Source of the DNA: Bacteroides fragilis
Lineage (GTDB): Bacteria > Bacteroidota > Bacteroidia > Bacteroidales > DTGW01
Direction: 5' to 3'
Assembly: GCA_945889005.1 (NCBI GenBank)
Contig: CAMDBI010000008.1
Location: 10,473 to 74,472 of the forward strand
Length of the DNA stretch: 64,000 bases
Positions 10,091 to 63,854 of the stretch are shown here, one piece after another. How positions within the stretch are numbered: position 1 is the stretch's first letter; each line of letters starts with the position of its first letter. Under the pieces are notes generated by a model that made no database searches, had not been told where the DNA came from, and saw only the letters and a list, made by a program, of their open reading frames with translations. The position numbers and the translations under genes are program-made.

Positions 10091-10162
10091 TTCGTTATTC
10101 GTTGTTCGTGCAGCGTGCTTCGTGCTTCGTACACAGTGCACGATGCACGATGCACGAAGCAC
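10091..10162. repeat. Heptanucleotide tandem array (TTCGTGC-type x6, then inverted GCACGAW-type x4)
   Basis: Exact 7-nt phase: ttcgtta ttcgttg ttcgtgc agcgtgc ttcgtgc ttcgtac acagtgc acgatgc acgatgc acgaagc. There is a perfect 11-bp inverted repeat, GTGCTTCGTGC (10115-10125) / GCACGAAGCAC (10152-10162). The array fills the asnS-rpoN spacer. Confidence 0.85.
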
Positions 10163-10171
10163 TATTCATAT

Positions 10172-11569
10172 TTAAAACTCTGCATTCTTTGGTGTTCGTG
10201 GGAAAGGAATAACATCTCTAATATTTCCCATACCGGTTACAAAAAGCATGAGTCGTTCAAATCCTAGACCAAATCCACTGTGAGGTGCTGTACCATATTT
10301 TCGGGTATCGAGGTACCACCACAAATCTTTCTGAGGCATATCGAGCTCAACAATTCGATTGAAAAGCTTATCGTAGTTTTCTTCGCGCTCAGAACCGCCA
10401 ATAATCTCGCCTATTCGTGGAAACAAAACATCCATAGCACGTACCGTTTTGCCATCGGGATTTTGTTTCATGTAAAATGCCTTTATCTCTTTGGGGTAGC
10501 CGGTCAATATTACCGGACAGTTAAACACTTTTTCGACCAAATAGCGCTCGTGTTCCGATTGCAGGTCTACTCCCCATTCAACTTTATATTCAAACTTTTC
10601 TCCACTTTTTACAAGTATATCAATGGCTTCAGTGTATGTTAATCTTTTAAAACTATTGTTGGTAACAAACTGCAAACGTTCGATCAATTCTTTGTCGTAC
10701 ATTTCATTTAAGAACTTGAGATCGTCCATATTGTTCTCAAGTGCATACTTAACAAGGTACTTGAGAAAGTCTTCGGCCAAATCCATGTTGTCGTTAATAT
10801 CGTTAAAAGCCACTTCGGGTTCAATCATCCAAAACTCGGCTAAATGTCGCGGAGTATTAGAGTTTTCGGCACGGAAGGTTGGTCCAAAGGTATAAATTGA
10901 ACCCACAGCCATGGCTCCCAATTCTCCTTCGAGTTGCCCCGAAACGGTCAAATTGGCTGCTTTGCCAAAAAAGTCTTCTTCTTCGTTTATTTTTCCATCT
11001 GAGGTTTTGGGTATATTGTTGAGATCTAGTGTTGTAACACGAAACATGGCACCTGCACCTTCACAATCGGAAGCTGTAATAATGGGTGTATGCATATAGC
11101 AAAAACTCCGATCGTTAAAATACTTGTGAATAGCGAATGCCATAGCGTGTCGTAAACGCAATACACAGCCAAACGTGTTGGTACGTGGACGAAGATGCGC
11201 TATTTCGCGTAAAAACTCCAGTGTATGACCTTTCTTTTGCAATGGATATGTGTCGGGATCGGCTGTACCATATATCTCTATTTCACTTGCCTGAATTTCG
11301 ACCGACTGCCCTTGTCCTTGCGATTGAACAAGTTTGCCTTGTACTCTTAAACACGAACCGGTTGTTACGGGTTTGAGCATTTCATCGGAATGTACTGCCA
11401 AATCGACCACGACCTGAATACTATTGACCGTTGAACCATCGTTGATAGCTATAAACTGTACATTCTTATTGCCTCGGCGGGTTCGTACCCAACCTTTTAC
11501 TGTTACTTCGCTTCCTACTGCTCCACTTAAAAGCAATTCTTTTACTAATTTCCTTTCGTTCTGTGCCAT
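10172..11569 (-). CDS. asnS: Asparagine--tRNA ligase
   Basis: 465-aa class II aaRS with an N-terminal OB fold, [21 protein letters not shown] (motif 2) and a [10 protein letters not shown]-terminus. Confidence 0.95.
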
Positions 11570-11660
11570 TTTTATTAATTCTTTTTATAAATTAGTATCA
11601 AATAAACCCGCTTTGCAAAAATATAATATTTAGAGTTAATTCAATCGCTTTACAAACATT

Positions 11661-12356
11661 ATGCTCAATATAAAAAAATATTTTTCGAGTTTCGCTTTGC
11701 TTTTCTATCCTAATTATTGCTGTAGTTGTGGTTACTTGCTATTTACCAGCGAACAACATATCTGCACTAAATGTCTCTACAAGTTGCCCAAAACCAATTT
11801 TCATAAAACTCCCGACAATGTTATTGCACAAAAATTTTGGGGCAAAGTGCAGGTCGAACATGCAACGGCATTTTACAATTTTCAAAAAAGCTTAAGAATA
11901 CAAAAGATTATGCACCATCTCAAATACAGAAACAATACAGATGTTGGGGTTTTACTGGGCAAACTAGCGGCCATAGAGCTCAAAGATACTCAATTCAACC
12001 ATGTTGACTGTATCGTGAGCATTCCTCTTCACAAACTTCGCGAGAAACAACGTGGCTACAATCAGAGCGACTACATTGCCATTGGATTAGCTGAAGGATT
12101 GGGAAAAGAATTTGTTAAAAATGCATTAATCCGAAACACAAATACATCGTCGCAAACCCGCAAGAATCGCTTTGAACGTTGGAAAAACACCGAAAATATT
12201 TTTGATGCTTCGCCCACTGCAAACTTCTATGGAAAACATATTTTACTTGTCGACGATGTTATTACCACTGGCTCAACCCTCGAATCGTGCGCCATAGCAC
12301 TAAAAAAACAATTCGATTGCAAAGTGAGTATTTTTGCCTTGGCTGTAGCTTCGTAA
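11661..12356 (+). CDS. ComF family protein (phosphoribosyltransferase domain)
   Basis: 231-aa ORF with N-terminal Cys pairs (CCSCG...CTKC) and the C-terminal PRTase motif ILLVDDVITTGST. Confidence 0.85.
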   Translation: MLNIKKYFSSFALLFYPNYCCSCGYLLFTSEQHICTKCLYKLPKTNFHKTPDNVIAQKFWGKVQVEHATAFYNFQKSLRIQKIMHHLKYRNNTDVGVLLGKLAAIELKDTQFNHVDCIVSIPLHKLREKQRGYNQSDYIAIGLAEGLGKEFVKNALIRNTNTSSQTRKNRFERWKNTENIFDASPTANFYGKHILLVDDVITTGSTLESCAIALKKQFDCKVSIFALAVAS

Positions 12357-12572
12357 TATATTGAACAAGACACAATTCGCAAGCTGAATTTCTATCCCGA
12401 ATTTTTCTTTTCAAAACCAATTACAATCTATGAATCAAAATCGACAAGTCTAATACACTACAAATTGTAATTTGCGACATTTGGAGTGTTGGGGTAAATC
12501 AAATGGCGCTACTTCATTATTCGTAGAAAATGTTTATTTAATCATCATTTATAATCTTTGTTAAAGACGAAA

Positions 12573-12631
12573 GTCAGAAGTCAGAAGCAACTACACTTCT
12601 TGCTTCCATGTTCCAACTTCTAGCCTCTAAC
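12573..12631. repeat. Weak heptanucleotide array (GTCAGAA x2, then inverted NNCTTCY x5)
   Basis: gtcagaa gtcagaa gcaacta cacttct tgcttcc atgttcc aacttct agcctct, all in one 7-nt phase. The two halves are partly complementary (GAAGCAA/TTGCTTC). Confidence 0.45.
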
Positions 12632-12730
12632 TTTATCAAATCAAAGATCATTCTGCAAAAATTATAGTAGAACCATAAAAAATAAGTCATTAAATTGTAA
12701 CTTGCAGCCTGTTTTTCAAAATCAGAAACA

Positions 12731-13264
12731 ATGAATTTTCTGTCATTCTTCAAACTACAATTTATCCTTTGGATATTACCCATTGCAGTAATTATTCAAA
12801 ACATCGAAGTGTCGTCGAACCTATATTCGTGGCTCATTCATCATGAACTAACATTACCTGCATCAATAAAAGAACTTATCGGCGATGTGTATGCTCCTTC
12901 ATTTAAAGACCGGTTAAATACCAGCTTATTCTTAGCATCAGTCTTACCACTGCTCGTAGTGTCGTTTTTCAACCGCACCAACAATAAATCGTATACACGC
13001 CATATACTAACTATTGCCGGTTTTGTAATCATAATCGGTGCCATGACTAAAATGGTGTTGGTTTTATTATATCAATCGTACATACCCGGTGTTGTAACTG
13101 CCATGTTTTTGTGCCTTCCATTAAGTTTTAGGTTGGTCAAATATTGCTTCGATACATTCAACTTCCCATATTACATCAAATTGCTTGTGTTTATATTTTC
13201 AATCATATTGTATTTGCCCTTAACATGGGCTATTTGGATGTTTTCATCTTTACTCATTTTTTAG
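12731..13264 (+). CDS. Hypothetical polytopic membrane protein
   Basis: 177-aa ORF with five hydrophobic segments, ending 1 nt before the next gene. No recognisable motif. Confidence 0.55.
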   Translation: MNFLSFFKLQFILWILPIAVIIQNIEVSSNLYSWLIHHELTLPASIKELIGDVYAPSFKDRLNTSLFLASVLPLLVVSFFNRTNNKSYTRHILTIAGFVIIIGAMTKMVLVLLYQSYIPGVVTAMFLCLPLSFRLVKYCFDTFNFPYYIKLLVFIFSIILYLPLTWAIWMFSSLLIF

Positions 13265-13265
13265 T

Positions 13266-14114: not shown

Positions 14115-14188
14115 ATCAAAAAACAAATAGATTTAATTGTAATTCAAATGTTTTAAACTAATTTTGAGTTATTATAAGTATAATAATC

Positions 14189-14405: not shown

Positions 14406-14575
14406 TCGACACAATTGAACAAACCATCCAACTTAGAAAAACATACAAAACAAAACTTCCAGATGCAATCATTGCAGCTACAGCTATGGTTTATAAATTG
14501 AAATTGATTACCCGTAATACTTGCTATTTTAATAATATTGAAGGCTTAGAATTAATAAATCCTTGGGAAATTTAG
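14384..14575 (+). pseudogene. Internally deleted PIN-domain (VapC-like) toxin remnant
   Basis: 63-aa ORF. The N-terminus MAISQYLIDT (PIN start motif) is fused to a PIN C-terminal segment (KLPDAIIAATAMVYKLKLITRN), so about half of a normal ~130-aa PIN protein is missing. It overlaps the antitoxin remnant in the usual TA manner. Confidence 0.5.
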
Positions 14576-14758
14576 AGTCAAAATAAAATATAAATAAGAA
14601 AAATATTTTTTTGAAAATAAAAAAAATATAATTTTACATCTCGAAATGTGGAAAAATTTGCGTCGGCTTGTAACCACTTTAAAAAAATACTAAAGAGACA
14701 ATCGCCTCCTTTTTGTTGTTGATTATAAGCCGCTTATTAAGATTCCCTTTTTAAATTT

Positions 14759-14786
14759 TCAATTGTCAATTAACAATTATCAATTA
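14759..14786. repeat. Heptanucleotide array TCAATTR x4 in the metK 5' leader
   Basis: tcaattg tcaatta acaatta tcaatta, ending 5 nt before the metK ATG (14792). It uses the same unit as the array at 63820-63854. Confidence 0.6.
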
Positions 14787-29698: not shown

Positions 29699-29992
29699 TT
29701 ATTGAATTGTTTTCAGTAATCTTGCAGAATGAAAAATTCTTAAAATATCGATATGTATTTCGTTTTTAATCAAGTAAATAATTCTATAATTGCCCTCAAT
29801 TAATTCATGTATATTTTTGTCATTAAATTCAGGCACAATTCTTCCCATGGATGGATTGTCTATAATAAATTGCACCTTTTGATATATTTTTTGAGTAGTA
29901 ACATTGTCATATCTCTTTGAATCTTCGGCAATGAAATCAAATATTTCTTTCAAATCAATAATTGCAATCTCGGTCCAGACTACTTTGTCCAT
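29699..29992 (-). CDS. Type II toxin, RelE/ParE family
   Basis: 97 aa with GRIVPEF...HELIEGNYRIIYLIKNEIHIDILRIFHSARLL, the typical RelE/ParE fold signature. It overlaps the upstream antitoxin gene by 13 nt. Confidence 0.85.
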   Translation of the reverse strand: MDKVVWTEIAIIDLKEIFDFIAEDSKRYDNVTTQKIYQKVQFIIDNPSMGRIVPEFNDKNIHELIEGNYRIIYLIKNEIHIDILRIFHSARLLKTIQ

Positions 29993-30616: not shown

Positions 30617-30868
30617 ATGAATACACAACATATACAGTTAAATGTTCCGCTAAGTTTTAAGCAGTTAATTGACATTATAAAGCAGCTATCGCCTATTGAG
30701 AAGCAGCAACTTAGTGAAGTTTTGTGGACTGAACAAAGTGTTGACGATGTTGTAATTCCCGATGAACATAAACAAATTGTTAAGCAGCGCATAAAAAAAT
30801 ATGAAAACCAGCCAAATAGCTATCTTTCTTGGGATGATATTGAATGCAAAATGGCTGCCCGAAAATGA
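30617..30868 (+). CDS. Antitoxin, 'addiction module component' type
   Basis: 83 aa with a C-terminal IPDEHKQIVKQRIKKYENQPNSYLSWDDIE, typical of the Unstab_antitox-type family. Its stop overlaps the toxin start (ATGA). Confidence 0.75.
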   Translation: MNTQHIQLNVPLSFKQLIDIIKQLSPIEKQQLSEVLWTEQSVDDVVIPDEHKQIVKQRIKKYENQPNSYLSWDDIECKMAARK

Positions 30869-31173
30869 AATTTACAATTGAATATAACCCCGATTTCTTT
30901 AACGACATAGTAGCAGCTGTTGACTGGTACAATGAAAAACAAGCAGGACTGGGCGACAAGTTTTTTAAAATCATAAAACAACAAACAGCCAAGCTTTCAA
31001 CTTCTGCTTTGCATTATGCTGTAAAATACGATGATATTCGCTGTATGGGTGTAAACAAGTTCCCATATCTGATACATTACCGTGTTAATGAGTACACCAA
31101 AACAGTAAAAGTTGAAGCTTTATTCCATACCAGCCGAAACCCCAATATCTGGAACGAACGTACATATTATTAA
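30865..31173 (+). CDS. Type II toxin, RelE/ParE family
   Basis: 102 aa from ATG 30865, with FPYLIHYRVNEYTKTVKVEALFHTSRNPNIW, the characteristic C-terminus. Confidence 0.8.
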   Translation: MKFTIEYNPDFFNDIVAAVDWYNEKQAGLGDKFFKIIKQQTAKLSTSALHYAVKYDDIRCMGVNKFPYLIHYRVNEYTKTVKVEALFHTSRNPNIWNERTYY

Positions 31174-32379: not shown

Positions 32380-33360
32380 TTAAAATCTGTTCATCCACCT
32401 ATACCGGCGTACCGACTCGCCAAAACGAAGAGCTGCCGTTATCTCGTGCGAGCCAAAGGTCGATAGTTGGCTGGTTTGGAAATTGTAATCGAAGGCGTAA
32501 CCTGCAAAGAATTTGTTTTTCTGTATACCCAAGAGCACCACCGCTGTTGAAACGGTGCGATACGAAAGCCCAAACCAATATTGATCGAGGTAATAGATGC
32601 GTGCCGACAGGTCGAATTGAAAGGTAAGCTGCTCGGTGGTTTTGAGGTAAACCGATGGCTCGAATACAAAATCTTCGGAACGAGAAAACTTATTGCTAAA
32701 TATAAAATTGTACTGGCGGTTGAGCTTATAATTCCTGAGCTTCTCGCTACCAATTTTTATATACGATTCAAAAAGATTTGAAACAGAAAACCCTGCCGTT
32801 AACGTACGGTTATAAAAAAAAGTTCCGGTCGAGAAATCGGGAACAAATACAGGCTCTGCCAATCCTTCTAAATACGTATTGTCGAGCTTGTTGCGAAAAG
32901 AAAGACTAGAGGTATTTATTGCAAACTGCGCTCCAGTAAATGCAAGCCCGAACGACAATTGGGCATTTGGGAAAGCTATATGATGTGCATACGATAAATT
33001 GAACGAAGAGCGTTTGAAAATACCGTGTATATCGCTGTCGATACTTGCTCCCAAGCCTGTTCGTCCGCTTCGCGAAGGTTTGAATTTATTTTTGCCCAAA
33101 AATTTCTGTTTTTTGACAATATAACTTCGACTCAATATACGACCCTGAGTACTAAGCGAGTAATTCCTGGGAGCATCTTTTAGCCCAATCCATTGCTGTC
33201 GCGAAGTAAGATTGATTACAGTATAACCATCGTAACCTGCCAATGCCGGATTGATTAAAAAGCCATTAAGCATATATTGGCTATAATTGGGCATTTGCTG
33301 TGCAAGTACACCAAGTGAGCAAAGCAAAAAAATGAGTATTATCTTAGGGCTACTTTTCAT
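32380..33360 (-). CDS. Type IX secretion system membrane protein, PorP/SprF family
   Basis: 326 aa with a signal peptide followed by the family N-terminus QQMPNYSQYMLNGFLINPALAG...RQQWIGLKDAP and a beta-barrel-like remainder. Its start overlaps the adhesin stop (ATGA). Confidence 0.88.
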   Translation of the reverse strand: MKSSPKIILIFLLCSLGVLAQQMPNYSQYMLNGFLINPALAGYDGYTVINLTSRQQWIGLKDAPRNYSLSTQGRILSRSYIVKKQKFLGKNKFKPSRSGRTGLGASIDSDIHGIFKRSSFNLSYAHHIAFPNAQLSFGLAFTGAQFAINTSSLSFRNKLDNTYLEGLAEPVFVPDFSTGTFFYNRTLTAGFSVSNLFESYIKIGSEKLRNYKLNRQYNFIFSNKFSRSEDFVFEPSVYLKTTEQLTFQFDLSARIYYLDQYWFGLSYRTVSTAVVLLGIQKNKFFAGYAFDYNFQTSQLSTFGSHEITAALRFGESVRRYRWMNRF

Positions 33361-36300
33361 CGAACAATCGAAATTACCCCGGTTAATTTTTCGGAACCAT
33401 CGCCCGGATCAATTACATAGTAATATGAGTCCATAGGTAAATCGCGACCATTGCGAGTTCTGCCATCCCAAATCCGTTTATATCCTCTATCTGATTGAAA
33501 TACCAATTCGCCCCAACGATTGAATACTTGAATAATAGTATTACTGTAATGTGGCACTTCTTTGACATCTTGAGGATCGGCAGTTAACCCAGCTTTAATG
33601 TCCCATATGTCGTTGATACCATCGTTGTTGGGCGAAAATGCATTGGGTACATCGAAACAAGATACCTTGATATTTTTAAGCCTAATAGTGTCGCGCACCA
33701 AACAGCCGTTTTGGTCGGTTATGGCAACATGGTAAATTCCATTGACAAGGTTAAAAATACTATCGCCGGTATCGCCGTTACTCCATTTGATAGCATAGGG
33801 CGGAGTAGCGCCAGTAACCGATACCCGAATCGATCCATCGTGAGTAGCCGGACAATAAGGGTCTCTCGAGATAGTGGTTTCGACCAATGGTTTCGGATGT
33901 GTTACTTCTACACTCTGCTTGCTGTAACAATTGTTGATGTCCTGTATAAGCACTTCGTGTGTGCCCTTTGGAAGGTTCACTGCCGTTTGTGTAATCTGGC
34001 CATCGTTCCACAAGAACTTGTATGGCATAGTGCCTCCAAAAGGAATAGCTCGGGCAGTGCCATCGTTGAAACCAAAGCACGAAGCATTTTTTACATCGAA
34101 ATTGGAAGTAATAATCTCGGGTTGCGTAACCTCTATAGAGTCGCGACCTTTACAATTGTGCAAATCGGTAACTACGACCGAGTACAAACCTGCACCCAAA
34201 CCGGTAACTATGGTATCTTGATCTTTGGAGCTCCACTGGTAGGTAAACGGAGGAGTTCCTCCTTTGGCAGTAACCGAAAGCGATGCGTCTTTTTTGCCCT
34301 GACACGTAATGTTTTGCCCATTGTAATCTGATTCAATACTGATGCTTGGCTTTATAAAATTGGGTTGCGTCAACAAAACAGTGTCTTTTCTCACACAATT
34401 ATTCAAATCGTGCGTTTCGACAGCATACCAACGAGCATCGAGTTCGGCAACCGATGCTGTAAGCGGGCCATGCTCCCATTTGTATCGATAAGGTGCTACA
34501 CCACCATAAGCATCGATGCTTGCTTTGCCATCGTGCGATTCGAAGCAAGTGAGCGGTACGGTGTTTTTAAACGATTCGAGAGGTGTTGATTGGGTCAGGC
34601 TAATTTCTTTCGATTTTGTACACATATTTTTGTCGGTAACCTCTACCTTATACTTGCCAGCTTTGAGGCTATATTGGTTTTGTAAGATTGTATTGACCGT
34701 ATTGCCTGGTGTTACAGCTGTCCAATTGTATGTATATTCCGGAATACCTCCTTTTACAGTCAGAAAAGCACTGCCATTGGCTGATCCGGCACACGAAACC
34801 GAATAGCCTTGATAGTTCGACAAAGAATCTTTAATCGCGATAGAATCGGGCTGGTTAAGTTCAAAATCAAAGGTTTTAGAGCACGATTGACCATATTTTA
34901 CTTTTACAGAGTATTTACCTTCAGAAAGATTTACAATCTTATTAACATCTTGAAGCAATACATTCTTGTTGCTATCGAGCCAATCGTATGTGTAAGTACC
35001 AAATCCGCCCGAAGGATGCACTTCTATCCAAGCATTGTTTCCTCCGTAACAGGCTACATTTTTACCATTGTAATCGGAATATTCCGGTGTTACCTGAGGT
35101 TCGGCGGGCTTGGTAAGAGTAACTGTTGTCGGTACCATACATAATTTATAGCTGTTTTTCAAAGCATCTGTATTATTTAAATCGTTATTTCCCTGAAGAT
35201 TCACCGAATCGATAACAGTTATGATATATTGACCCGATTCGAGATTTTCGCGATACGATGTTGAAATTTTCGACGAAGCATCGGGGTCTAACCATTGATA
35301 TCTAAGTCTGTTCGTATAACTTCGGGCGTCTATTTTGATCCAACCATTGGCCGAATTGTGACACGAAATGTTGTAGGCATCGTAGAAATTGGATTTTGAA
35401 TGAGTTATACTAATTTTTGGAGCACTTAATACCGTAAATTCTTTAGAATTTTCGCAACCTATGATGGTATTTTTAAATAAAAAGAGATATTTGCCAGGAG
35501 CTAGTGATGAAATATTTTTAGTATTACTTATTAAACTATCTTCGATTGGGCTTTCTCCTTTATACCAATAATATTGACTATTATCCCAAGGGAGATCATA
35601 AGGATATATAAATGCATCTTTTGCTCCATAGCATATTTCGTAAATAGATTCTTCTGAATTATAATAATTGCTAGCTATTACAGGCCATTCTAAATTTGTT
35701 TCTACTTTATGACTAGCTTTTGCAGAATCCAAACAGCTATTTGCATCAACCACAACTACTCCATAATCCTTATCTGGGCGAACACCAATAATAGTATCTT
35801 TTAACCTGTAACTTATATTAAAATCTTTAGCCCAAATAGAGACTCGTGCCCAATCATATGTATAAGGTTCGGTTCCTCCTCTAACATAGCATGTTGCCAT
35901 GCCATTGCTTGCTTCTGCGCACGGAGGCAAGCCAAAAATACTAACACTGTCTACAACAAGCTTTTGGGGTTCATAAAGTGTAATCTGTGTACTGTCTTTA
36001 CAACCCTCGCGATGATCCGAAACAATTACTTTGTAGAAACCAACCCCATTTTGTGAAATTATACGGCTTGTCTTGTTATTGCTCCATTTAAAGGTACAAC
36101 TATCTTCGGTATATTTGTATCCATAACTAGCTTCAGTTGCCCCACCATTTACTTTAACCCTTATTGTGTCGTTCTTATCGCCTTTGCACTTCACGTTCCA
36201 TCCCCCGACGTAATTTTTTGCTATTATGTCTAGTTTCATATCGGGCAGCACTTTAACATCGAAAACCGTATCCTTACCTTCGCAAATCTTGCCCGATGCA

Positions 36301-38114: not shown

Positions 38115-38153
38115 CGTGAACCGTGGACTGTGAACCGTGGACCGTGAACCGTA
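38115..38153. repeat. Heptanucleotide array CGTGRAC x5.5 (GTYCACG on the minus strand)
   Basis: cgtgaac cgtggac tgtgaac cgtggac cgtgaac cgta, followed by the CTTCGACTCCGCTCAGCAACC motif (38154-38178). It sits in the 88-nt spacer between the FKBP gene and the adhesin gene. Confidence 0.8.
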
Positions 38154-40978: not shown

Positions 40979-41218
40979 TTAAATATTAACTTCAATTTGC
41001 TGTTCGTGCCCCGACAATTGATTTATAAACAACAACTTACCGTCGTCCGATTTTTGTAATTGCTCATTAGCATTGAGCAATTCAAAACCATATATGGTTC
41101 CATCGGCTGCCATATCAACAACTAAATCGTCGCTTAATTTTATTGAATTCACCTTGGTAGGTTTATTCTTCAATGCTACATAAGCAATGTTGAATTTGTG
41201 GTCGTAAGTTATTTTCAT
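40979..41218 (-). CDS. DUF2283-family small protein (putative antitoxin of a DUF4258 toxin)
   Basis: 79 aa from ATG 41218 (MKITYDHKFNIAYVALKN...). It is a paralogue of 61128-61340, and its start overlaps the stop of the upstream gene (ATGA). Confidence 0.7.
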   Translation of the reverse strand: MKITYDHKFNIAYVALKNKPTKVNSIKLSDDLVVDMAADGTIYGFELLNANEQLQKSDDGKLLFINQLSGHEQQIEVNI

Positions 41219-41481
41219 ATTTTTAAGTATTTTACTAAAACTGTAATTACTAACCATTCTTCGATTTCGGATACTGCAAAGGCTTCAATTTGTTTGGTTG
41301 CGAAATATTTGCCGTTCCATTCATTATTGAAAATAAAATTCAATCGAAACCCTGTTCTCCCGTGTTTTGCAGGAAACTGTTCTCAACAATCGACTGTTAA
41401 AATTACTTCAATTTCCTCTGCTCCTCTTTCGAATAGCCGGAGTAAAGCATGTGGATGTAGAATTGGTTTGTTTTTATTCAT
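41215..41481 (-). pseudogene. DUF4258-family toxin gene with an in-frame TGA
   Basis: Minus-strand translation from ATG 41481 gives MNKNKPILHPHALLRLFERGAEEIEVILTVDC*EQFPAKHGRTGFRLNFIFNNEWNGKYFATKQIEAFAVSEIEEWLVITVLVKYLKI*. It is collinear across the stop (41385-41383) with the intact paralogue at 60863-61138. Confidence 0.7.
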
Positions 41482-46342: not shown

Positions 46343-46384
46343 GTCATTTGTCATTAGTCATTAGTAATTAGTCATTAGTCATTT
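46343..46384. repeat. Heptanucleotide array GTCATTA x6
   Basis: gtcattt gtcatta gtcatta gtaatta gtcatta gtcattt, ending 6 nt before ATG 46391, in the divergent recO / 46391 spacer. Confidence 0.85.
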
Positions 46385-48854: not shown

Positions 48855-48940
48855 AAATAGTTAATAGTTGAATTTGTGTTTCGACAGGCTCAACAACCGA
48901 AGTTGAAAGTTGAAAGCAAAAAAAATAACTCTATTACTTT

Positions 48941-49134
48941 CCACTGTTCACTTTCCACTGTTCACTATCCACTGTTCACTGTCCACGGTTCACTGTCCAC
49001 GGTTCACTGTCCACGGTTCACTGTCCACTGTTCACTATCCACTGTTCACTGTCCACGGTTCACTGTCCACGGTTCACTGTCCACGGTTCACTGTCCACGG
49101 TTCACTGTTCACTGTTCACGGTTCACTGTTCACT
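48941..49134. repeat. Heptanucleotide array YCACKGT x28 (14-nt CCACGGTTCACTGT super-unit; 70-nt higher-order duplication)
   Basis: 194 nt in one 7-nt phase. Heptads 3-12 (48955-49024) are repeated exactly as heptads 13-22 (49025-49094). The array is preceded by GTTGAAA x2 (48901-48917) and its last unit overlaps the carB stop codon (49133-49135). Confidence 0.95.
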
Positions 49135-52100
49135 AAACCGTGTATTCGTCCCAGCTTTTAATAGCGATATCGTCTACATCTTTCTTGCACACAGCCGTTA
49201 AAAACGAATTTGCCAAACGAGCATTGGTCAAAAGCGGTATATTGAAATCGATTGCTCCACGGCGTATTTCGTAATCGTTGTTCAACTCGAGCTTCGAAAG
49301 GTTTTTAGGTATGTTTACCACCATGTCGAATTTCTTGTTGCGGATCAAGTCCATTACATTGGGGCTTTGGTTTTCGTCGGGCCAGTATACCATGGTGCTT
49401 TCAACTCCATTGAGTTTAAAAAACTCGTGGGTTCCACGGGTGGCAAACAATTCAAATCCCTTTTCGAGCAAAAGACGAGCAGGTCCGAGCATTTCGACTT
49501 TCGACTTTGTTTCGCCGGTCGAAAACATAATATTATTCTTTGGAATACGATAACCCACAGACAGCATCGATTTCAACAAAGCTTCGTAATAATCGTCGCC
49601 AATGCATCCTACCTCGCCAGTCGAAGCCATGTCGACTCCCAATACGGGATCAGCTTTTTGTAAACGCGAGAACGAGAATTGTGGTGCTTTTACACCTATA
49701 TGCTCAATCTCAAAAATCGATTTGTCGAGTTTTTCGACCTTTTCGCCCAACATTACTTTGGTAGCCATTTCAATAAAGTTCTGTTTCAAAACCTTAGAAA
49801 CAAAAGGGAAACTGCGCGATGCACGAAGGTTACATTCAATAACCTTTATATCGTTGTCTTTGGCAAGAAACTGAATGTTGAATGGGCCAGAAATATTAAG
49901 TTCTTCGGCTATTTCGCGACTAATGCGCTTAATACGACGAACCGTTTCGAAATAAATTTTTTGTGCAGGAAATACCATAGTTGCATCGCCCGAGTGAACA
50001 CCAGCAAACTCAACATGTTCGGAAATAGCATACGCCATTATTTCTCCATCTTTTGCTACTGCATCAATTTCAATCTCTTTGGCATTCTCGATAAACTCCG
50101 AAACTACAACAGGATGCTCTTTCGATACTTTAGCTGCCAGTCTAAGAAATTGCTCAAGCTCTTCGTTGTTGGAACACACGTTCATAGCAGCTCCCGAAAG
50201 CACGTACGACGGGCGAACCAAAACAGGAAAACCCACTTTATCGACAAATGTATGTATTTCGTCCATATTGGTAAGTTCTTGCCAACGAGGTTGATCTATT
50301 TCAAGGCGATCGAGCATCGACGAAAATTTGTGTCGGTTCTCGGCACGGTCGATCGACTCGGGTGCTGTACCCAAAATTGGGACGCTTTGCTGATGCAAAC
50401 GCATTACCAAATTATTGGGTATTTGCCCGCCCATCGAAACAACTACTCCTTTTGGAGTCTCGAGATCGATAATGTCCATCACTCGTTCAAACGAAAGTTC
50501 GTCGAAATATAATCGATCGCACATATCGTAGTCGGTACTAACCGTTTCGGGATTGTAGTTGATCATAATAGAGCGATAGCCATACTTATGAGCAGTCGTT
50601 ATTGCATTTACCGAGCACCAATCGAACTCTACAGAACTTCCAATACGGTAAGCTCCAGAGCCAAGAACAATTACCGACTTATTGTCGTTCAGAAAATCGA
50701 TATCGTGAACGATTCCATGATAGGTCATGTACAAATAATTGGTCTTTGCAGGGTATTCGGCTGCAAGGGTATCAATTTGCTTCACGCTTGGAAGTACACC
50801 TAACTTTTTTCGATAGTTACGAGCCCTGAGCATGGCTTCGTGCATTGAGCCTTCAAATTCTTTTTCGACCGAACGAGCTATTTGAAAATCGGAAAAGCCT
50901 TTTTTCTTGGCTTCCAAAATGGTATCGGCACTAAGTTCTTCTAGTTTATTATATCCGGCAAGGGTTTTCTGAAGATCGAATATGCTTTTGAGTTTGTACA
51001 GGAACCATTTGTCAATTTTTGTCAGATCGTGAATTTTGTCGACCGTGTAGCCTTTGTCAAATGCTTTTTCGATAACGAAAATACGCATATCGGTTGGTTC
51101 GCTTAGCTCGCGGTCTACATCTTCAATCTCTATATCGCGATTGCCTACAAAACCGTGCATGCCCTGACCAATCATACGCAAGCCCTTTTGAATAGCCTCT
51201 TCAAACGAGCGACCAATACTCATTACCTCGCCTACAGACTTCATCGAAGAGCCAATCTGCTTCGAAACACCAATAAACTTGTTCAAATCCCAACGAGGAA
51301 TTTTACAAACAATATAATCGAGTGCAGGCTCAAAAAATGCCGATGTAGTCTTAGTTACAGAGTTTGTTAGTTCGTGAAGACCATATCCTAGCGACAATTT
51401 GGCTGCAACAAACGCAAGAGGATAACCAGTGGCCTTCGATGCCAAAGCCGACGAGCGCGACAAACGAGCATTTACTTCTATTACACGGTAATCTTCAGAA
51501 TTCGGGTCAAGGGCATATTGAATGTTACATTCGCCAATAATACCAATATGGCGAATGGTACGTATCGAAATTTCGCGAAGCTTATGATATTCGCTATTGG
51601 TAAGCGTTTGCGAAGGAGCAACCACAATACTCTCGCCAGTATGAATACCTAGCGGATCGAAATTCTCCATGTTACAAACCGTAATACAGTTGTCGAACTG
51701 GTCGCGTACAACCTCATATTCAACTTCTTTCCATCCTTTGAGAGATTCTTCGACCAGTATTTGTGGTGCATACGAAAAGGCTTTCTCGGCCATTTTACGC
51801 AGTTCGTCTACATTGTTAGAAAAACCACTACCTTGACCGCCCAATGTATAAGCAGCTCTGATAATAACCGGGAAACCCAGACGTTCTGCTGCCTTTACTG
51901 CATCATCTACCGTTGTAACAGCTTCGCTGCGACAGGTTTTTACATCTATCTCGTTCAGTAGATTGACAAAAAGTTCGCGATCTTCGGTATTCATAATGGC
52001 TTTTACTGGTGTACCAAGCACCCGAACATTGTATTTTTCTAAAACTCCCGATGTATATAGTGCCGTACCACAGTTAAGCGCAGTTTGACCACCAAAAGAA

Positions 52101-57220: not shown

Positions 57221-57384
57221 CGTGGATAGTAGACCGTGAACCGTTGACAGTGGACCGTGAACCGTAAATTTCACGTTTCACGTTTCACGGTCCACGGTTC
57301 ACGAATTACGGTTCACGACTCACGGTTCACGGTTCACGGTTCACGGTTCACGAATTACGGTTCACGAATTACGGTTCACGAATT
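57221..57384. repeat. Heptanucleotide array: CGTGRAC x7, then inverted TTCACGR x16
   Basis: The orientation switch at about 57268 creates a perfect 12-bp inverted repeat, GTGGACCGTGAA (57250-57261) / TTCACGGTCCAC (57284-57295). The array occupies most of the argR-argG spacer. Confidence 0.95.
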
Positions 57385-59214: not shown

Positions 59215-59343
59215 GGGACTGTCTTAAAAGACAAGAATAAATTAAAACGCAAAGACTCAAAGGCGCAAAGTATTATAGATCAACAATTATTTTCTTTGCG
59301 TATTAGCGACTTAGCGTTTTAAATAAACTTTTGAGACAGCCTC
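59215..59343. repeat. About 129-nt MITE/REP-like nested imperfect palindrome followed by a T-run
   Basis: The outer arms are GGGACTGTCTTAAAAG (59215-59230) / CTTTTGAGACAGCCTC (59328-59343). The inner arms are TTAAAACGCAAAGAC...GCGCAAAG / CTTTGCG...GACTTAGCGTTTTAA (22/29 complementary), followed by TTTTTTT. Confidence 0.6.
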
Positions 59344-59417: not shown

Positions 59418-60227
59418 ATGCAGACTATCAACAAAATTGCCGTTATTGGAGGCGGCAACATAGGAACAGCAATTATAACAGGACTTACAAGATCAGGTGT
59501 TTTTAAAAAATCTGATATTACTGTAACTCGTTTACCTTCGCAATCACTCACAGATCTTCAAAAGGAAGGTTTTAATGCAACACATTCTAATATCGAAGCC
59601 ATTTCAAATGCTGAAATGATCATAGTTGCTGTACAACCTCGCCAGGCAAAACAAATTTTTGCTGAGTTAAAAGAACATATTGACCATAAAAAGCAAACCG
59701 TCGTTTCAATAGTTTCGGGTCTTGCCATTGAAGATATTGAGAAACACATAGGAGGTAAAACAGAGGTCATTCGAGTGATGCCCAATACAGCAATTGCCGT
59801 CTGTGAATCAATGACTTGCATGGCTTCAAAAAATACTTCATCAAAACGTTTCGAAGAAGTAAAAGCAATTTTTTGTAAAGTAGGAAAAGTACTGGTTATT
59901 GATGAAAAACTAATGGCGTCGGCAACAGTGTTAGCAGCATGTGGAACAGGTTTCTTCCTTCGAATAATACGAGCAGCCTCACAAGGTGGTATTCAGGTCG
60001 GGTTTCATGCCGATGAAGCACAACTTATTGCAGCTCAGGTAGCCAAGGGTGCCACTACTTTGGTACTTGAAACAGGCAACCACCCCGAAGCAGAGATCGA
60101 TAAGGTTACAACCCCTATGGGTCTCACCATTAAAGGTCTGAACGAAATGGAACATAATGGATTAAGCTCTGCAATTATCAAAGGTATAGTTCATTCGTAT
60201 ACTGAGATGGATAAACTTACGAAATAG
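59418..60227 (+). CDS. proC: Pyrroline-5-carboxylate reductase
   Basis: 269 aa with the Rossmann motif VIGGGNIGTAI and the C-terminal P5CR dimerisation domain (TTPMGLTIKGL). Confidence 0.9.
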   Translation: MQTINKIAVIGGGNIGTAIITGLTRSGVFKKSDITVTRLPSQSLTDLQKEGFNATHSNIEAISNAEMIIVAVQPRQAKQIFAELKEHIDHKKQTVVSIVSGLAIEDIEKHIGGKTEVIRVMPNTAIAVCESMTCMASKNTSSKRFEEVKAIFCKVGKVLVIDEKLMASATVLAACGTGFFLRIIRAASQGGIQVGFHADEAQLIAAQVAKGATTLVLETGNHPEAEIDKVTTPMGLTIKGLNEMEHNGLSSAIIKGIVHSYTEMDKLTK

Positions 60228-60296
60228 ACGGAAGACGGAAGACGGTTTACGGTACACGGTACACGGTTCACGGTACACGGTTCACGGTTCACGTAT
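60227..60296. repeat. Heptanucleotide array, exactly 10 units, grading from GACGGAA to CACGGTT
   Basis: gacggaa gacggaa gacggtt tacggta cacggta cacggtt cacggta cacggtt cacggtt cacgtat. The first base is the G of the proC TAG stop. Confidence 0.95.
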
Positions 60297-60332
60297 AAAA
60301 AAGATAATAGACACTAGACAATAAATATAAGG

Positions 60333-60794
60333 ATGGGAACAACATTTTTGACAAAATCGGGCGAGTGCGAATTGACGAATGAGAAGATAATCTTACATAT
60401 CGATCCGGAACTTCCTAAATTTAAACTGGGTTACGACGAATTTAATTACAAAACAAGAATTGCTGTTGTGTCTTTTTTTGGACTATTCGTGCTAATGTAT
60501 TTGTTTTTATATAGCGCACAAATAAAAAATACCACATTGGTTATGATTATGTTGTCTGTTGTGTATGGTTTCCAGTTTTATCAATTGTATCTCTACTCAA
60601 CGGTCGATGTACTATATAGAAAAGATATTACCCGTATCCTTTACCGCAAGAGCTTTTTGTCGTTTGGATCATACTTCCATATTTTTTATGTCGATGAAAA
60701 AGGTCATAACAAAAACCGTCTTATCATGTTCCGAAACAAAGACGAACGCCAAAAAGCACTTAAGATGTTTAAGGAAGCGGGTATTATGGCATAG
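60333..60794 (+). CDS. Hypothetical membrane protein
   Basis: 153 aa with two central hydrophobic segments and no recognisable motif. Confidence 0.5.
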   Translation: MGTTFLTKSGECELTNEKIILHIDPELPKFKLGYDEFNYKTRIAVVSFFGLFVLMYLFLYSAQIKNTTLVMIMLSVVYGFQFYQLYLYSTVDVLYRKDITRILYRKSFLSFGSYFHIFYVDEKGHNKNRLIMFRNKDERQKALKMFKEAGIMA

Positions 60795-60862
60795 TTTTGA
60801 ACTCATTACAACAAAAAGACTTCCATGATATTAATTTAATAAACATTATCTTTGTATTGAAA

Positions 60863-61138
60863 ATGATAAAAATCGAGCCCCATACGATTGAGAGAGCATT
60901 AGAGAGAGGAACGACAAGTGAAGAAATTTTTGACACAATAAATAATGGGGTATTTGGAATTGCAAAAAAAGACCGATTTTTAAAATATAAGATATTCATA
61001 TTTAACGATATCAGAAATGGAAAATATTATAAGCATAAAAAAGTTGAAGTAATTTTTAAAAAAGAGGAATCAACATTTATTACTATAACAGTATATGTAT
61101 ATTACGGAACTTGGGAGGAAATGAAAGATGATAATTAA
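60863..61138 (+). CDS. DUF4258-family protein (putative toxin)
   Basis: 91 aa from ATG 60863 (MIKIEPHTIERALERGTTSEEIFDTINNG...). The track start 60797 is TTG. It overlaps the downstream DUF2283 gene by 11 nt. Confidence 0.7.
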   Translation: MIKIEPHTIERALERGTTSEEIFDTINNGVFGIAKKDRFLKYKIFIFNDIRNGKYYKHKKVEVIFKKEESTFITITVYVYYGTWEEMKDDN

Positions 61139-61340
61139 TTATGATTCTAAAAATGATCTGCTTTATATTAGGTTCGACAAAGCAAGTCAACCCATTATAA
61201 ACAAACGAATAGATGATACAATTGTATTGGATTTAGGCGAAAACGACCGTATTGTTGGTATTGAAATAACAGATGCATCAGAACATATTCAATTAAATGA
61301 AATATTACCAATTGAATATGCAATTAGAAAAGCGTCATAG
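61128..61340 (+). CDS. DUF2283-family small protein (putative antitoxin)
   Basis: 70 aa (MIINYDSKNDLLYIRFDKAS...IVGIEITDAS), a paralogue of 40979-41218. Confidence 0.7.
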   Translation: MIINYDSKNDLLYIRFDKASQPIINKRIDDTIVLDLGENDRIVGIEITDASEHIQLNEILPIEYAIRKAS

Positions 61341-61429
61341 TTTTTTATTTGTAAAATCTATTAAAATAGTGTAATATATAGAAATGCAAATTCAACCTTT
61401 CATCAGTTTACATTTACTTTCAATAAAAC

Positions 61430-61462
61430 AAAAAAGCACCTCATTTATCGAGGTGCTTTTTT
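61430..61462. terminator. Bidirectional intrinsic terminator between convergent genes
   Basis: AAAAAA-GCACCTC-ATTTATC-GAGGTGC-TTTTTT. Confidence 0.85.
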
Positions 61463-61550
61463 GTTGAAATTTATATACTTATAAATCTGTTTCTAGAGTG
61501 AATCCTATATTATAAATTTATAAAAAGAGCATAAATACAGAATTATTATT

Positions 61551-62045
61551 TTATTGTTTTGTATAAATTTTCTTTTCATTACCCATCATAAGTGTCATCT
61601 TATCCCCAGCAATTGAGTAAGTAGCTTCACTTTTTAAACTTCCACCAAATGCTTCAACAAGAGCTTGCATTACTTCAAATTCTGTTGAACCATCTTTGTA
61701 CCATGTAAGCTCAAATTTTTGATCAGTTTTAATTTTGTCCTCACCATATTCAGAAAGTGTTGAAGTAATTTTATTGCCACTTACAGTGATATTACTTTTT
61801 GAACCATTCACATCAACATATAATGAACCTTATTTTTCCTGTTTTATTACAGTCACTGTACTTTTTGTAATAGTTACTGTTTCTTTAAAAAGAACACTTT
61901 CAACATCAGAATAATTTGGTTCATCGTAATAGGTAGTTACCCAAGTACCAACATAATCAGGATCAACTGTTTCTTCTTCTGTACAAGAACTTACGAAAAA
62001 AGAAAATGCTAAAATTGCAAATGAATAGAAAATAATTTTTTTCGT
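61551..62045 (-). pseudogene. Lipocalin-like lipoprotein gene with a mutated start (ACG) and one in-frame TAA
   Basis: The minus-strand frame reads (ACG)KKIIFYSFAILAFSFFVSSC TEEETVDPDYVGTWVTTYYDEP...TVIKQEK*GSLYVDVNGSKSNITV...KIYTKQ*. There is a classic lipobox but no ATG/GTG/TTG upstream, because ACG sits where ATG is expected (62045-62043). The TAA is at 61832-61830. Confidence 0.6.
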
Positions 62046-62237
62046 GTTAAATAGTTTTTGTGTTAATAATATAAATAAAAAAAATGTAATTACAAATGAA
62101 TAATTCTAGTTTTTTAAAAGTTATTATAACTTAAACTTAACATTCAAAAAAAACTGAAATTAATATATTTAAAGATATACTCATTTCAGTTGATTATAAG
62201 GATAAATACTTTTTTTGAAAAGTCAATAGTGAAATAC

Positions 62238-62274
62238 AAAAAAAAGCACCTTGGTTTCCCAAGGTGCTTTTTTT
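62238..62274 (-). terminator. Intrinsic terminator after gltD
   Basis: AAAAAAAA-GCACCTTGG-TTTC-CCAAGGTGC-TTTTTTT, which is bidirectional in form. Confidence 0.85.
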
Positions 62275-62303
62275 AGCGACTTAATGCCTTCGCGTAAAAT
62301 ATA

Positions 62304-63737
62304 TTACTTCTTTACTTCTGTCATCAAAAATTTGTGAACGTTTTCGGCCATTTTGCGTCCTTCGGCTATGGCATGTACTACTAATGATGGACCACGTACT
62401 GCATCGCCAGCTGCAAATACTTTAGCTACCGAGGTAAACTTTTTATCGTCGGCTTTCACATTGCCACGGTTGTCGTATTCAACTTTAAGACCATCGCAAA
62501 GTCCTTCGTGTACAGGGCTAACAAAACCCATCGAAAGAAACACTAAATCGGCTTTAATAACCTTATTGGTACCGGGAATTTCGCTCATTACCTGACGGCC
62601 ACTGGCATCTTTCTCCCATTTAACCTCAACAACTTCAACACCGGTAACTTTGCCATTTTCGCCAATAAATTTCTTTGATGCTAAGCTCCACTCGCGTTCG
62701 CAACCTTCTTCGTGGCTCGAAGAAGATTTTAGGGTATAAGGCCAGTATGGCCATGGATTGTCTTCGGCACGGTCGACAGGAGGCTTAGGCATAATCTCTA
62801 TCTGAGTTACACTCTTGGCTTTATGACGGTTCGATGTACCTACACAATCGGAACCGGTATCGCCACCACCGATGACAAGTACATGCTTATCTTTTGCGCT
62901 AATGCGTTCGACTTCCGAGAATTCTTTACCTGCAATAACACGGTTTTGCTGTGTAAGAAATTCCATGGCATAGTAAACACCTTTTAGATCGCGACCTTCG
63001 ATAGGCAAATCGCGAGGTTTCATTGCTCCAATAGCTATACAAACAGCATCGTAGTCTTTCAAGAGTTGTTCGGCTTTGATATCGACACCAACATTTACGC
63101 CGGTTTTCACTTCGAGACCTTCAGCTTTAAGAACATCCATACGGCGTTCAACAACTTCTTTGTTCAACTTAAAATCGGGGATACCAAAGCGAAGCAAACC
63201 ACCTACTGCTTCGTCTTTCTCGAAAAGAGTAACCGAATGACCCCATTTGTTGAGTAAATCGGCAGCAGCCATACCGGCTGGGCCCGATCCAATTACAGCA
63301 ACCTTCTTACCTGTGCGGCTTTTAGGAGGCTGAGGTTTGATATAACCTAAAGTAAAGGCATTCTCGATGGTTGCACATTCGTTTTCGCGAATGGTAACAG
63401 GTTCCTTATGAATGTTGAGTACACAACCCTTTTCGCAAGGCGCAGGACAGATACGACCAGTGAACTCTGGAAAATTGTTGGTAGAGTGAAGCACCTTAAT
63501 GGCTTCGTCCCATTTGCCACGGTAAATAGCATCTTGCCATTCGGGCATAGTGTTTGCAACCGGGCACGACCATTGACAAAATGGCACACCACAGTCCATA
63601 CAACGCGATGCTTGCAACTGACGTTCTGCATCGTTGAGTGTTTGTTCAACTTCGCCGTAATCGGCTATTCGCTCGTGAATGGGTCTGTTTCCAGCCTCTA
63701 AACGGGCTACTTCCATAAATCCTTTTGGATTTCCCAT
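62304..63737 (-). CDS. gltD: Glutamate synthase (NADPH) small subunit
   Basis: 477 aa with Fe-S Cys clusters (CMDCGVPFC, CPAPCEKGC), the dinucleotide fold VAVIGSGPAGMAAA and a second GGGDTGSDC. Confidence 0.95.
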   Translation of the reverse strand: MGNPKGFMEVARLEAGNRPIHERIADYGEVEQTLNDAERQLQASRCMDCGVPFCQWSCPVANTMPEWQDAIYRGKWDEAIKVLHSTNNFPEFTGRICPAPCEKGCVLNIHKEPVTIRENECATIENAFTLGYIKPQPPKSRTGKKVAVIGSGPAGMAAADLLNKWGHSVTLFEKDEAVGGLLRFGIPDFKLNKEVVERRMDVLKAEGLEVKTGVNVGVDIKAEQLLKDYDAVCIAIGAMKPRDLPIEGRDLKGVYYAMEFLTQQNRVIAGKEFSEVERISAKDKHVLVIGGGDTGSDCVGTSNRHKAKSVTQIEIMPKPPVDRAEDNPWPYWPYTLKSSSSHEEGCEREWSLASKKFIGENGKVTGVEVVEVKWEKDASGRQVMSEIPGTNKVIKADLVFLSMGFVSPVHEGLCDGLKVEYDNRGNVKADDKKFTSVAKVFAAGDAVRGPSLVVHAIAEGRKMAENVHKFLMTEVKK

Positions 63738-63746
63738 GATATTTTA

Positions 63747-63854
63747 TTATTGAAATTTGATTATTGACTAATATTAATTATATAGATTATTGATTTTTTG
63801 ATACTTAATTATTGATTTTTTAATTGTCAATAATCAATTATCAATTGTCAATTG
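63747..63854. repeat. TCAATWR heptad words: four inverted copies (TTATTGA), then five tandem units (63820-63854)
   Basis: TTATTGA occurs at 63747, 63761, 63787 and 63809, followed by ttaattg tcaataa tcaatta tcaattg tcaattg, ending at the gltB stop codon (63855-63857). The region spans the whole gltB-gltD spacer. Confidence 0.7.

Follow-up and report, generated by a model that had tools for sequence, protein, structure and literature searches.

Dispersed heptanucleotide arrays in the intergenic spacers of an uncultured Bacteroidales: probable slippage-made simple-sequence repeats, some of them palindromic

Heptamer arrays between genes were first described in 1990, and we know of no bacterium in which their function or the mechanism that generates them has been established. 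The stretch of contig CAMDBI010000008.1 analyzed here (64,000 nt, hereafter the window) raises this question anew, as nine of its spacers hold units of 7 nt repeated in tandem, for which a first, sequence-only reading had proposed an intercistronic RNA or DNA function. Are these arrays real, how did they come about, and do they serve a purpose between the genes that they separate? With moderate confidence, we take them to be heptanucleotide long simple-sequence repeats (LSSR), akin to the short tandemly repeated repetitive (STRR) sequences, which are made by slippage and confined to spacers; the palindromic arrays would be intercistronic hairpins similar to repetitive extragenic palindromic (REP) sequences and bacterial interspersed mosaic elements (BIME).

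Tandem repeats were detected with Tandem Repeats Finder (TRF) and with a self-match scan that asks for at least 85% identity between a 21-nt segment and the sequence p bases away. The arrays are present at the positions first given for them. TRF returns period-7, -14, or -21 arrays at all loci named in the sequence-only reading, and the self-match scan of the window finds nine period-7 runs and none for periods 2–6 and 8–13. When the spacers alone are scanned, eight period-7 runs are found vs none in 500 mononucleotide shuffles and none in 500 first-order Markov simulations, so the spacers of the window are indeed enriched in period-7 repeats. Intergenic self-match at lags 7, 14, and 21 is 0.335, 0.345, and 0.326, respectively, over a background of ∼0.30, and the coding DNA of the window shows no rise at these lags, only the usual period-3 signal. 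The gene models behind this division were checked with NCBIfam, which also confirmed the names given to the flanking genes (asnS, rpoN, metK, FKBP, type IX secretion system (T9SS) adhesin, carB, argR, argG, proC, and gltD). Noncoding DNA makes up 14.3% of the window and holds 790 of the 793 array bases; the statement that arrays never enter a credible coding sequence is therefore correct except for three bases. Repetition beyond compositional expectation and the exclusion from coding DNA of units that are not a multiple of three, two marks of an LSSR, are both present.

The arrays account for 8.7% of intergenic bases and lie in 9 of the 34 spacers of at least 40 nt. Seven of these nine spacers separate co-directional genes, one is divergent (recO and the DUF2721 gene), and one is convergent (histidine kinase and carB). 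The number of loci, put earlier at ten or more, comes to eight that are robust and two (12573–12631 and 48901–48917, with 2.4 copies each) that are marginal (Table 1). Laid out seven bases to a row, the spacers keep their register over tens of units, even past the points of inversion.

Table 1. Heptanucleotide arrays of the window and of two other contigs discussed in the text
Sequence	Positions	Array	Setting	Support
Window	10091–10162	Palindromic; TTCGTTR/TTCGTGC units, then GCACGAW	Fills 84-nt asnS–rpoN spacer, both genes on minus strand	TRF, inverted repeats, fold
Window	12573–12631	Marginal; GTCAGAA x2.4 and weak inverted stretch	comF–orf12731 spacer	TRF; inverted arms 70% complementary; fold z −1.55
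Window	14759–14786	Direct; TCAATTR x4	metK leader, between SAM-II aptamer (14642–14703) and metK ATG (14792)	TRF
Window	38115–38153	Direct; CGTGRAC x5.5 (GTTCACG in sense of minus-strand genes)	Between FKBP stop (38188) and adhesin start (38099)	TRF, periods 7 and 14; fold z +0.52
Window	46343–46384	Direct; GTCATTA x6	Divergent recO/DUF2721-gene spacer	TRF, 91% matches; fold z +0.27; Pfam DUF2721
Window	48901–48917	Marginal; GTTGAAA x2.4	Convergent histidine kinase/carB spacer, just upstream of 48941 array	TRF
Window	48941–49134	Largest; 14-nt dimer GTTCACT+GTCCACG x∼14 (28 heptads)	Between convergent hybrid histidine kinase and carB	TRF score 300; fold z +0.39
Window	57221–57384	Palindromic; CGTGRAC x7, then GTTCACG-type x16	argR–argG spacer	TRF; inverted arms 49–55 nt; fold
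Window	60227–60296	Direct; GACGGAA grading through TACGGTA to CACGGTT, x10	From proC TAG to 36 nt short of ATG 60333	TRF; fold z −0.51
Window	63747–63854	Degenerate TTATTGA words (63747–63817), then inverted TCAATWR x5 (63822–63854)	Fills gltB–gltD spacer	TRF, 61% and 84% matches; inverted repeats; fold
L125	1275–1364; 1803–1878; 2204–2286	Heptad-stem hairpins	One begins right at start codon	
L004	2828–2856	GAATAAT	At upstream stop codon, in spacer upstream of argG	
L004	3008–3053	TTGGTTT/TTGATTC	Spacer upstream of argG	

The core sequence that all units had been said to share is not common to all loci, but two groups can be made out. A CACG/CGTG group comprises the arrays at 10091, 38115, 48941, 57221, and 60227, and the TCAATTR unit recurs at 14759 and 63822. 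GTTCACG itself, counted with its one-mismatch variants GTTCACT, GTCCACG, and GTACACG, is found at four loci (38115, 48941, 57221, and 60242), and five units (GTCATTA, TTCGTGC, GACGGAA, GTCAGAA, and GTTGAAA) occur at a single locus each. The array at 48941–49134 does contain the 28 heptads reported for it, but its real repeat is the 14-nt dimer, and identity also peaks at the higher-order spacings of 70 and 84 nt. TRF gives super-periods of 21 nt at 46346, 57221, and 60228. The dimer with its longer periods, the 21-nt super-periods, and the gradient from GACGGAA to CACGGTT after proC all argue for growth by duplication. In the scheme that we favor, the arrays would originate and lengthen through replication slippage and the duplication of several units at a time, their inverted halves would stem from intrastrand template switching, and the whole set may have proliferated recently in this Bacteroidales lineage.

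By the same scheme, arrays would survive only where no reading frame is broken and could expand up to a stop codon or to the translation-initiation region of the next gene. The proC TAG overlaps the terminal unit of the array at 60227–60296, the carB TAG (49133–49135, minus strand) overlaps the last unit of the array at 48941–49134, and the gltB stop, read at 63855–63857, directly abuts the array at 63747–63854. On the other side of the spacers, arrays end 3 nt before the ATG of rpoN (10087), 5 nt before that of metK, 6 nt before that of the DUF2721 gene (46391), and 9 nt before that of gltD (63737). The argR–argG array begins 3 nt past the argR stop and ends 36 nt short of the argG ATG. The contacts with proC, carB, metK, and ATG 46391 are as first described. 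Close to start codons the units are rich in A and T and remain unpaired when folded, for example AACGAAUAACGAAUUU ahead of the rpoN AUG, as if selection on the initiation region had trimmed the edge of the array.

Two gene starts beside arrays call for comment. The longest open reading frame (ORF) for rpoN (513 aa, window 8621–10162, minus strand) starts with GTG and reads through the heptamer array, which thereby becomes a 25-residue N-terminal extension; because the family alignment begins only at residue 26–28, we assign the true start to ATG 10087. The ORF of the T9SS-sorted adhesin (33357–38099, minus strand, 1580 aa) has no ATG before codon 385. Either it starts at a TTG or GTG (TTG 38099, 15 nt past the heptamer array) or its 5′ part is untranslated.

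The metK array lies within a transcribed leader, 56 nt downstream of an S-adenosylmethionine-II (SAM-II, long-loop) aptamer on the plus strand that scores 46.6 bits against an Rfam gathering score of 44; this aptamer and one tRNA are the only gathering-level Rfam matches in the window. From the aptamer to the metK ATG there are 88 nt, the TCAATTR array included. SAM-II riboswitches usually sequester the ribosome-binding region near the start codon; if this mode holds here, the distance is unusual. Readings of the arrays beside argG and metK as ARG boxes or MetJ boxes, made by visual comparison with the consensus sequences, gave no convincing match.

Three of the arrays, those between the co-directional pairs argR–argG, asnS–rpoN, and gltB–gltD, can form very stable hairpins. 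The argR–argG palindrome folds at −55 kcal/mol over 123 nt and at −74 kcal/mol over 216 nt (z −5.8), the RNA fold of the asnS–rpoN palindrome gives −35.7 kcal/mol (z −4.68), and that of the gltB–gltD palindrome gives −15.7 kcal/mol (z −2.84); purely direct arrays fold like shuffles (z about −0.5 to +0.5). The hairpin potential anticipated for the inverted arrays is thus strong, both by inverted-repeat search and by RNA folding. A change of orientation, proposed for five loci, is solid at three (10091, 57221, and 63747) and weak at a fourth (12573). The array hairpins match no Rfam family, only sub-threshold animal and plant microRNA-precursor models of the kind that match any long hairpin. In a terminator scan of the window, the intrinsic-terminator pattern of a G+C-rich hairpin with an immediate U-tract coincides with no array; a canonical terminator is present after gltD (62274–62239). 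By analogy with REP and BIME, the three palindromic arrays would most likely protect the 3′ end of the upstream mRNA or partially uncouple neighboring cistrons. The direct arrays, AT-rich in the metK, gltD, and DUF2721-gene leaders and GTTCACG-type after stop codons, would be unstructured filler that could at most tune expression through length.

Relatives were collected by an ArgG search of genome contigs (80 loci), the closest of which (80–84% identity) are not syntenic upstream of argG. The ArgG homologues all come from metagenome-assembled genomes (MAGs) of Bacteroidales/Bacteroidota, at no more than 86% identity, and the window also encodes a T9SS sorting domain and PorP/SprF. In the 44 more distant relatives that keep the argR–argG junction, the spacer measures 0–211 nt (median 36) and holds no heptads in any. 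About 0.9 Mb of argG neighborhoods from related Bacteroidales MAGs, several of which we take, from the project name, to be long-read assemblies, contains almost no period-7 arrays, and five loci from three of the nearest relatives (ArgG 84–86% identical, 75 kb) contain none. Alone among these relatives, L004 (MAG DAOSPF01, ArgG 84% identical) has two short arrays upstream of argG (Table 1), and its genome may be a second array-bearing one in the clade. Since the spacers of relatives lack them, the arrays are lineage-specific and apparently young, as opposed to conserved regulatory elements. A dedicated intercistronic function is weakened by this absence from orthologous spacers, by the lack of strand bias in 170 GTTCACG arrays from metagenomes and viruses (see below), and by the lack of any match between arrays and the intrinsic-terminator pattern.

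The argR–argG spacer of many related Bacteroidales MAGs has a feature of its own, a conserved stem GGTTGRCCG...CGGTCAACC that is followed by a T-run and encloses the loop CTTTTCATAGAT...AAGCTAT. This element of ∼100 nt, at locus positions ∼9890–10000, is found in L010, L011, L013, L017, L023, L031, L033, and L042 and, among further relatives, in L012, L014, L030, L038, and L044. Compensatory changes are seen in four of its seven pairs, it has no Rfam match, and it could be an attenuator, a terminator, or an ArgR-operator hairpin. The window carries its heptamer palindrome where these relatives carry the stem, and because many of them hold a conserved stem and T-run there, a hairpin at this junction has precedent.

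We compared the arrays with systems already described. The likeness to STRR proposed from the sequence is borne out, in that tandem heptamers are dispersed through intergenic DNA; as in Calothrix, Anabaena, and Nostoc, a genome has several different 7-nt units, scattered over many spacers that often separate co-transcribed genes. The window differs in its host, an uncultured Bacteroidales (from the T9SS, PorP/SprF, the long-loop SAM-II aptamer, and the ArgG homologues) and not a heterocystous cyanobacterium, and in the large share of its arrays that are palindromic. The canonical STRR units, which we take to be CCCCAGT, TTGGTCA, and CAACAGT (STRR3), do not occur in tandem in the window; GAACAGT, a window unit that reads ACTGTTC on the opposite strand, differs from CAACAGT at a single position. 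Three Calothrix heptamers are on record (PMC4692102).

The sequence-only reading knew of no equivalent in Bacteroidota, but heptamer repeats have been published for five Bacteroidetes: TAACTGA and "other heptamer direct repeats" lie in intergenic DNA of Gramella forsetii, Aequorivita sublithincola, Flexibacter litoralis, Paludibacter propionicigenes, and Elizabethkingia anophelis (MacGregor 2015, PMC4679880). Like the window arrays, the TAACTGA repeats of Beggiatoaceae, cyanobacteria, and these Bacteroidetes are intergenic, in 2–43 copies, and often a few nucleotides from a start codon; other heptamers occur in the same spacers (Gramella, Aequorivita, and Elizabethkingia), close relatives lack them in the corresponding spacer, and contigs break inside them (PMC4679880). 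Unlike those genomes, the window has seven single copies of TAACTGA and none in tandem. Its density is nine spacers in 64 kb, compared with 2–14 sets per whole Bacteroidetes genome, and the bias toward forward orientation at start codons seen in some TAACTGA species (PMC4679880) has no counterpart for GTTCACG here. The GGGAATC/GGGGAYT repeats of Xanthomonas and Nostoc are also intergenic, mostly 0–50 bp from an ORF end, and paired in inverted stem-loops or cruciforms (Rehm 2015, PMC4692102), with inverted heptamer pairs 0–50 bp from ORFs in Xanthomonas. They occupy about a hundred sites per genome and differ in length and sequence between close species, for which slippage was invoked (PMC4692102). 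Those units are G-rich and form G-quadruplexes, whereas the window units have no G-runs, and 90% of the Xanthomonas sites are common to two species (PMC4692102), whereas the sampled relatives here are without the window arrays.

Over-representation of intergenic heptamers in many bacteria is described by Rehm 2015 (PMC4692102) and attributed to Mrazek 2007 in the summaries given by PMC4679880 and PMC4692102, which also credit Mrazek 2007 with the slippage hypothesis. LSSR are defined as head-to-tail repeats with units of 1–11 nt; as these summaries describe them, they are arrays of 5–11-nt units that exceed chance length, the unit is most commonly 7 nt, units that are not a multiple of three are kept out of coding DNA, and their phylogenetic spread is sporadic, all of which resembles the situation here; the window is a dense instance of this umbrella category, with no difference in kind. 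The exclusion of CRISPR (clustered regularly interspaced short palindromic repeats) stands, as the units are 7 nt, contiguous, and without spacers, and CRISPR repeats are 23–50 nt with unique spacers. The exclusion of REP/BIME holds insofar as no palindromic sequence and no flanks are shared, and none of the scanned window ORFs, to which the check was limited, was identified as a REP-associated tyrosine transposase (RAYT). Enterobacterial REPs are conserved units of 20–40 nt moved by RAYT, whereas the stems here are iterations of 7 nt that differ by locus; the possible likeness is in working only, with three stable hairpins between co-directional genes and no U-tracts. What is new here is a dense, clean Bacteroidales case and the recurrence of GTTCACG and of heptad-stem hairpins across phyla; no new mechanism is shown.

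This recurrence was seen when GTTCACG was followed beyond the genome. Three tandem copies are found in no fewer than 120 contigs from metagenomes and 22 from viruses, and GTTCACG-bearing contigs range from 33 to 72% in G+C. A genome that carries one heptamer array tends to carry many: loci selected for GTTCACG contain 253 period-7 runs, ∼98 of which are of other units, and no other period between 5 and 12 exceeds 15 runs. Among viral contigs, triplets of the published unit TAACTGA are found in 107 and those of the window unit GTCATTA in 15; the shuffled controls GTGCTCA, GCTTCAG, and GTCTACG give 9, 8, and 3. Any heptamer forms arrays far above chance, and GTTCACG is moderately favored, not unique. 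In the 170 GTTCACG arrays from metagenomes and viruses, neither orientation with respect to genes prevails (39:35, 29:41, and 21:21), as judged from gene calls made with a crude ORF heuristic that a weak bias could escape. No flanks are shared among the window loci or among 140 metagenomic and viral GTTCACG loci, and in 33% of GTTCACG arrays the nearest ORF end is at most 10 nt away. The CGTGAAC-oriented arrays of the window have a sharp 5′ and a degenerate 3′ edge, a polarity that is not significant over 135 arrays (3.44 vs 3.19 matches, p = 0.13). A literature search found no bacterial papers on GTTCACG tandem arrays. A parallel in another phylum is contig Ga0213876_10000570 (L125) of a Pyrinomonadaceae (Acidobacteriota), in which three consecutive co-directional spacers are each filled by a heptad-stem hairpin (Table 1). 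The three units (TTTTAGA, TTTTCAG, and CGTGAAC) differ and are AT-rich against a genomic G+C of 69%. These spacers share the array architecture of the window.

Several of these observations sit poorly with slippage confined to spacers and count against it. GTTCACG is 2.4 to 7 times commoner than its composition-matched permutations in viral contigs, which neutral slippage alone does not predict, and the unit recurs at four loci within 64 kb. Slippage also gives no account of heptamer-prone genomes beside array-free relatives. Where opposed GTTCACG arrays lie within 120 nt of each other (13 loci), the order is [CGTGAAC]n...[GTTCACG]n in 12 (L084, L088, L106, L125, L136, L155, L168, L170, L177, L181, L192, and L200) and the reverse in one (L222), and the window array at 57221–57384 has the majority order. 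Seven of the 12 follow a single stereotyped pattern that includes a complementary inner stem, which brings the effective ratio nearer to 6:1. This form consists of 3–5 CGTGAAC, the inner stem CGTGAC(R)AGA, a loop of ∼10 nt, TCT(Y)GTCACG, and 3–4 GTTCACG; it is found in L125, L155, L168, L170, L177, L181, and L192, whose G+C is 0.61–0.70 and of which only L125 is taxonomically assigned (Acidobacteriota). Last, no U-tract follows the array hairpins.

Some of this would be accounted for if an active system that spreads horizontally, such as a heptad-reading DNA-binding protein or a repeat-generating enzyme, used the arrays as its substrate or made them as its product, which we think unlikely. Such a system would explain why some genomes are heptamer-prone and relatives with 84–86% identical ArgG are not, why GTTCACG occurs in both Bacteroidales and Pyrinomonadaceae, and why high-G+C contigs, one of them from Pyrinomonadaceae, carry a stereotyped heptad-stem hairpin with a preferred arm order (12:1), an order that the argR–argG array has as well.

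A more specific proposal is that the arrays act as duplex platforms, on which a protein might read one 7-bp heptad per dimer and polymerize along the heptads, so that the arrays would regulate as operators, block passage as roadblocks, or insulate neighboring genes. A protein known to work in this way is omega of plasmid pSM19035, of the ribbon-helix-helix type, which polymerizes on WATCACW heptads at sites of 7–10 contiguous heptads that overlap promoters, with at least four contiguous heptads needed for activity (PMC9499535). The window arrays resemble these operators and the parS sites of pSM19035 in their contiguous 7-bp units, 4–28 per site, in direct and inverted orientation and in register, and in the TCAC core common to GTTCACG and WATCACW; a role at the level of the duplex would suit arrays that favor neither strand of the adjacent genes, and the arm order of 12:1 could reflect orientation-dependent binding. 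However, only four of seven positions match WATCACW, AATCACA does not occur in tandem in the window, and the arm-order bias falls to ∼6:1 once related copies are collapsed. The omega system is plasmid-borne, with a defined consensus and cognate protein, whereas the units here are many and chromosomal, and a single binder would not be sufficient for units as unrelated as GTCATTA, TCAATTR, TTCGTGC, and GACGGAA in one genome. Ten window ORFs that are small or lack an annotation, when scanned with Pfam, gave toxin–antitoxin modules, DUF2721, HXXEE, and a deaminase and no candidate heptad-binding protein, such as a ribbon-helix-helix protein. Together with the lack of conservation in relatives, this leaves only a small chance for a platform of this kind.

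The arrays could also act as RNA, as platforms for a single-strand binder (such as ribosomal protein S1 or a cold-shock protein with a footprint of ∼7 nt per monomer) that would modulate translation initiation or mRNA stability. MacGregor put forward this idea for TAACTGA repeats upstream of start codons, citing heptamer-binding data for CspB (PMC4679880). It fits the four arrays that end 3–9 nt before starts (rpoN, metK, the DUF2721 gene, and gltD) with AT-rich, unstructured units, and the place of the metK array in a leader downstream of the aptamer. On the other hand, the 170 GTTCACG arrays show no sense or antisense preference, TCAATTR is in the sense orientation for metK but antisense for gltD, and half of the arrays follow stop codons instead of preceding starts; given also that relatives do not conserve the arrays, we consider such an RNA role improbable.

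Equally doubtful to us are tuning knobs of the contingency type, in which slippage would change the copy number and with it the promoter spacing or leader length and the expression of the neighboring gene. Control of expression through the copy number of heptanucleotide repeats is documented (PMC8262952), the known example being the 7-bp repeats upstream of hmw1A in Haemophilus influenzae. The promoter or leader position of the arrays at metK, gltD, and the DUF2721 gene would suit such a device, and the arrays must have changed recently, to judge from how alike their units are. One array (38115) precedes the T9SS adhesin gene. Most neighbors, however, are housekeeping biosynthetic genes, not genes for the surface or host interaction; a 3′ position or a convergent spacer is common among the arrays, and this species is carried by one sample only, ERR3719163, the protein collection holding no strain-level relative and the nearest other ArgG being 86% identical.

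A small nonautonomous mobile element inserting into spacers, be it a miniature inverted-repeat transposable element or REP-like, is a very unlikely source: the GTTCACG-type unit at four loci, the stereotyped palindrome in Acidobacteriota contigs (where it is sometimes clustered), the intergenic location, and the hairpin potential of some arrays would agree with it, but array length and unit vary continuously, neither the window loci nor the 140 metagenomic and viral loci have conserved flanks, terminal inverted repeats, or target duplications, and a nonexhaustive scan of window ORFs found no transposase or RAYT.

There is next to no chance that the arrays are assembly artifacts, because, although an independent short-read assembly (Logan) of run ERR3719163 breaks within the two longest arrays, it matches the window base for base through 60227–60296 and 63747–63854 (contig L083) and over the first 129 nt of the argR–argG array, and similar arrays occur in hundreds of unrelated contigs. 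The breaks lie at 57349/57355 and 47 nt into 48941–49134, and one Logan contig is flanked at both ends by the two long arrays. As the Logan contigs break inside them, the exact copy numbers of these two arrays (∼23 and ∼28 units) come from the window assembly alone. A different repeat lies at another join: the GNAT–proC spacer (59247–59270) holds three copies of the 8-nt repeat ACGCAAAG where L082 ends (59271) and L083 starts (59248).

Slippage-made repeats of the LSSR type thus remain our preferred reading, and even as such the arrays have consequences. If the window is representative, the genome carries about one array per 7 kb and ∼9% of its intergenic DNA is array, in a phylum previously with scattered examples only. 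Many arrays occupy the whole spacer between essential biosynthetic genes, and they put up to ∼160–190 nt of repeat, some of it hairpin-forming, into operon junctions and a riboswitch leader. They break short-read assemblies and risk misannotation as N-terminal extensions, as in the 513-aa GTG form of rpoN. A cultured array-bearing relative would make neutral slippage vs a protein- or RNA-level function directly testable. We note, apart from the arrays, that the window holds several small toxin–antitoxin-like modules at 29699–29992 (−), 30617–31173 (+), 40979–41257 (−), and 60863–61340 (+), with two ParE-family toxins, an "Unstab_antitox" antitoxin, and DUF2283 twice with a DUF4258 partner.

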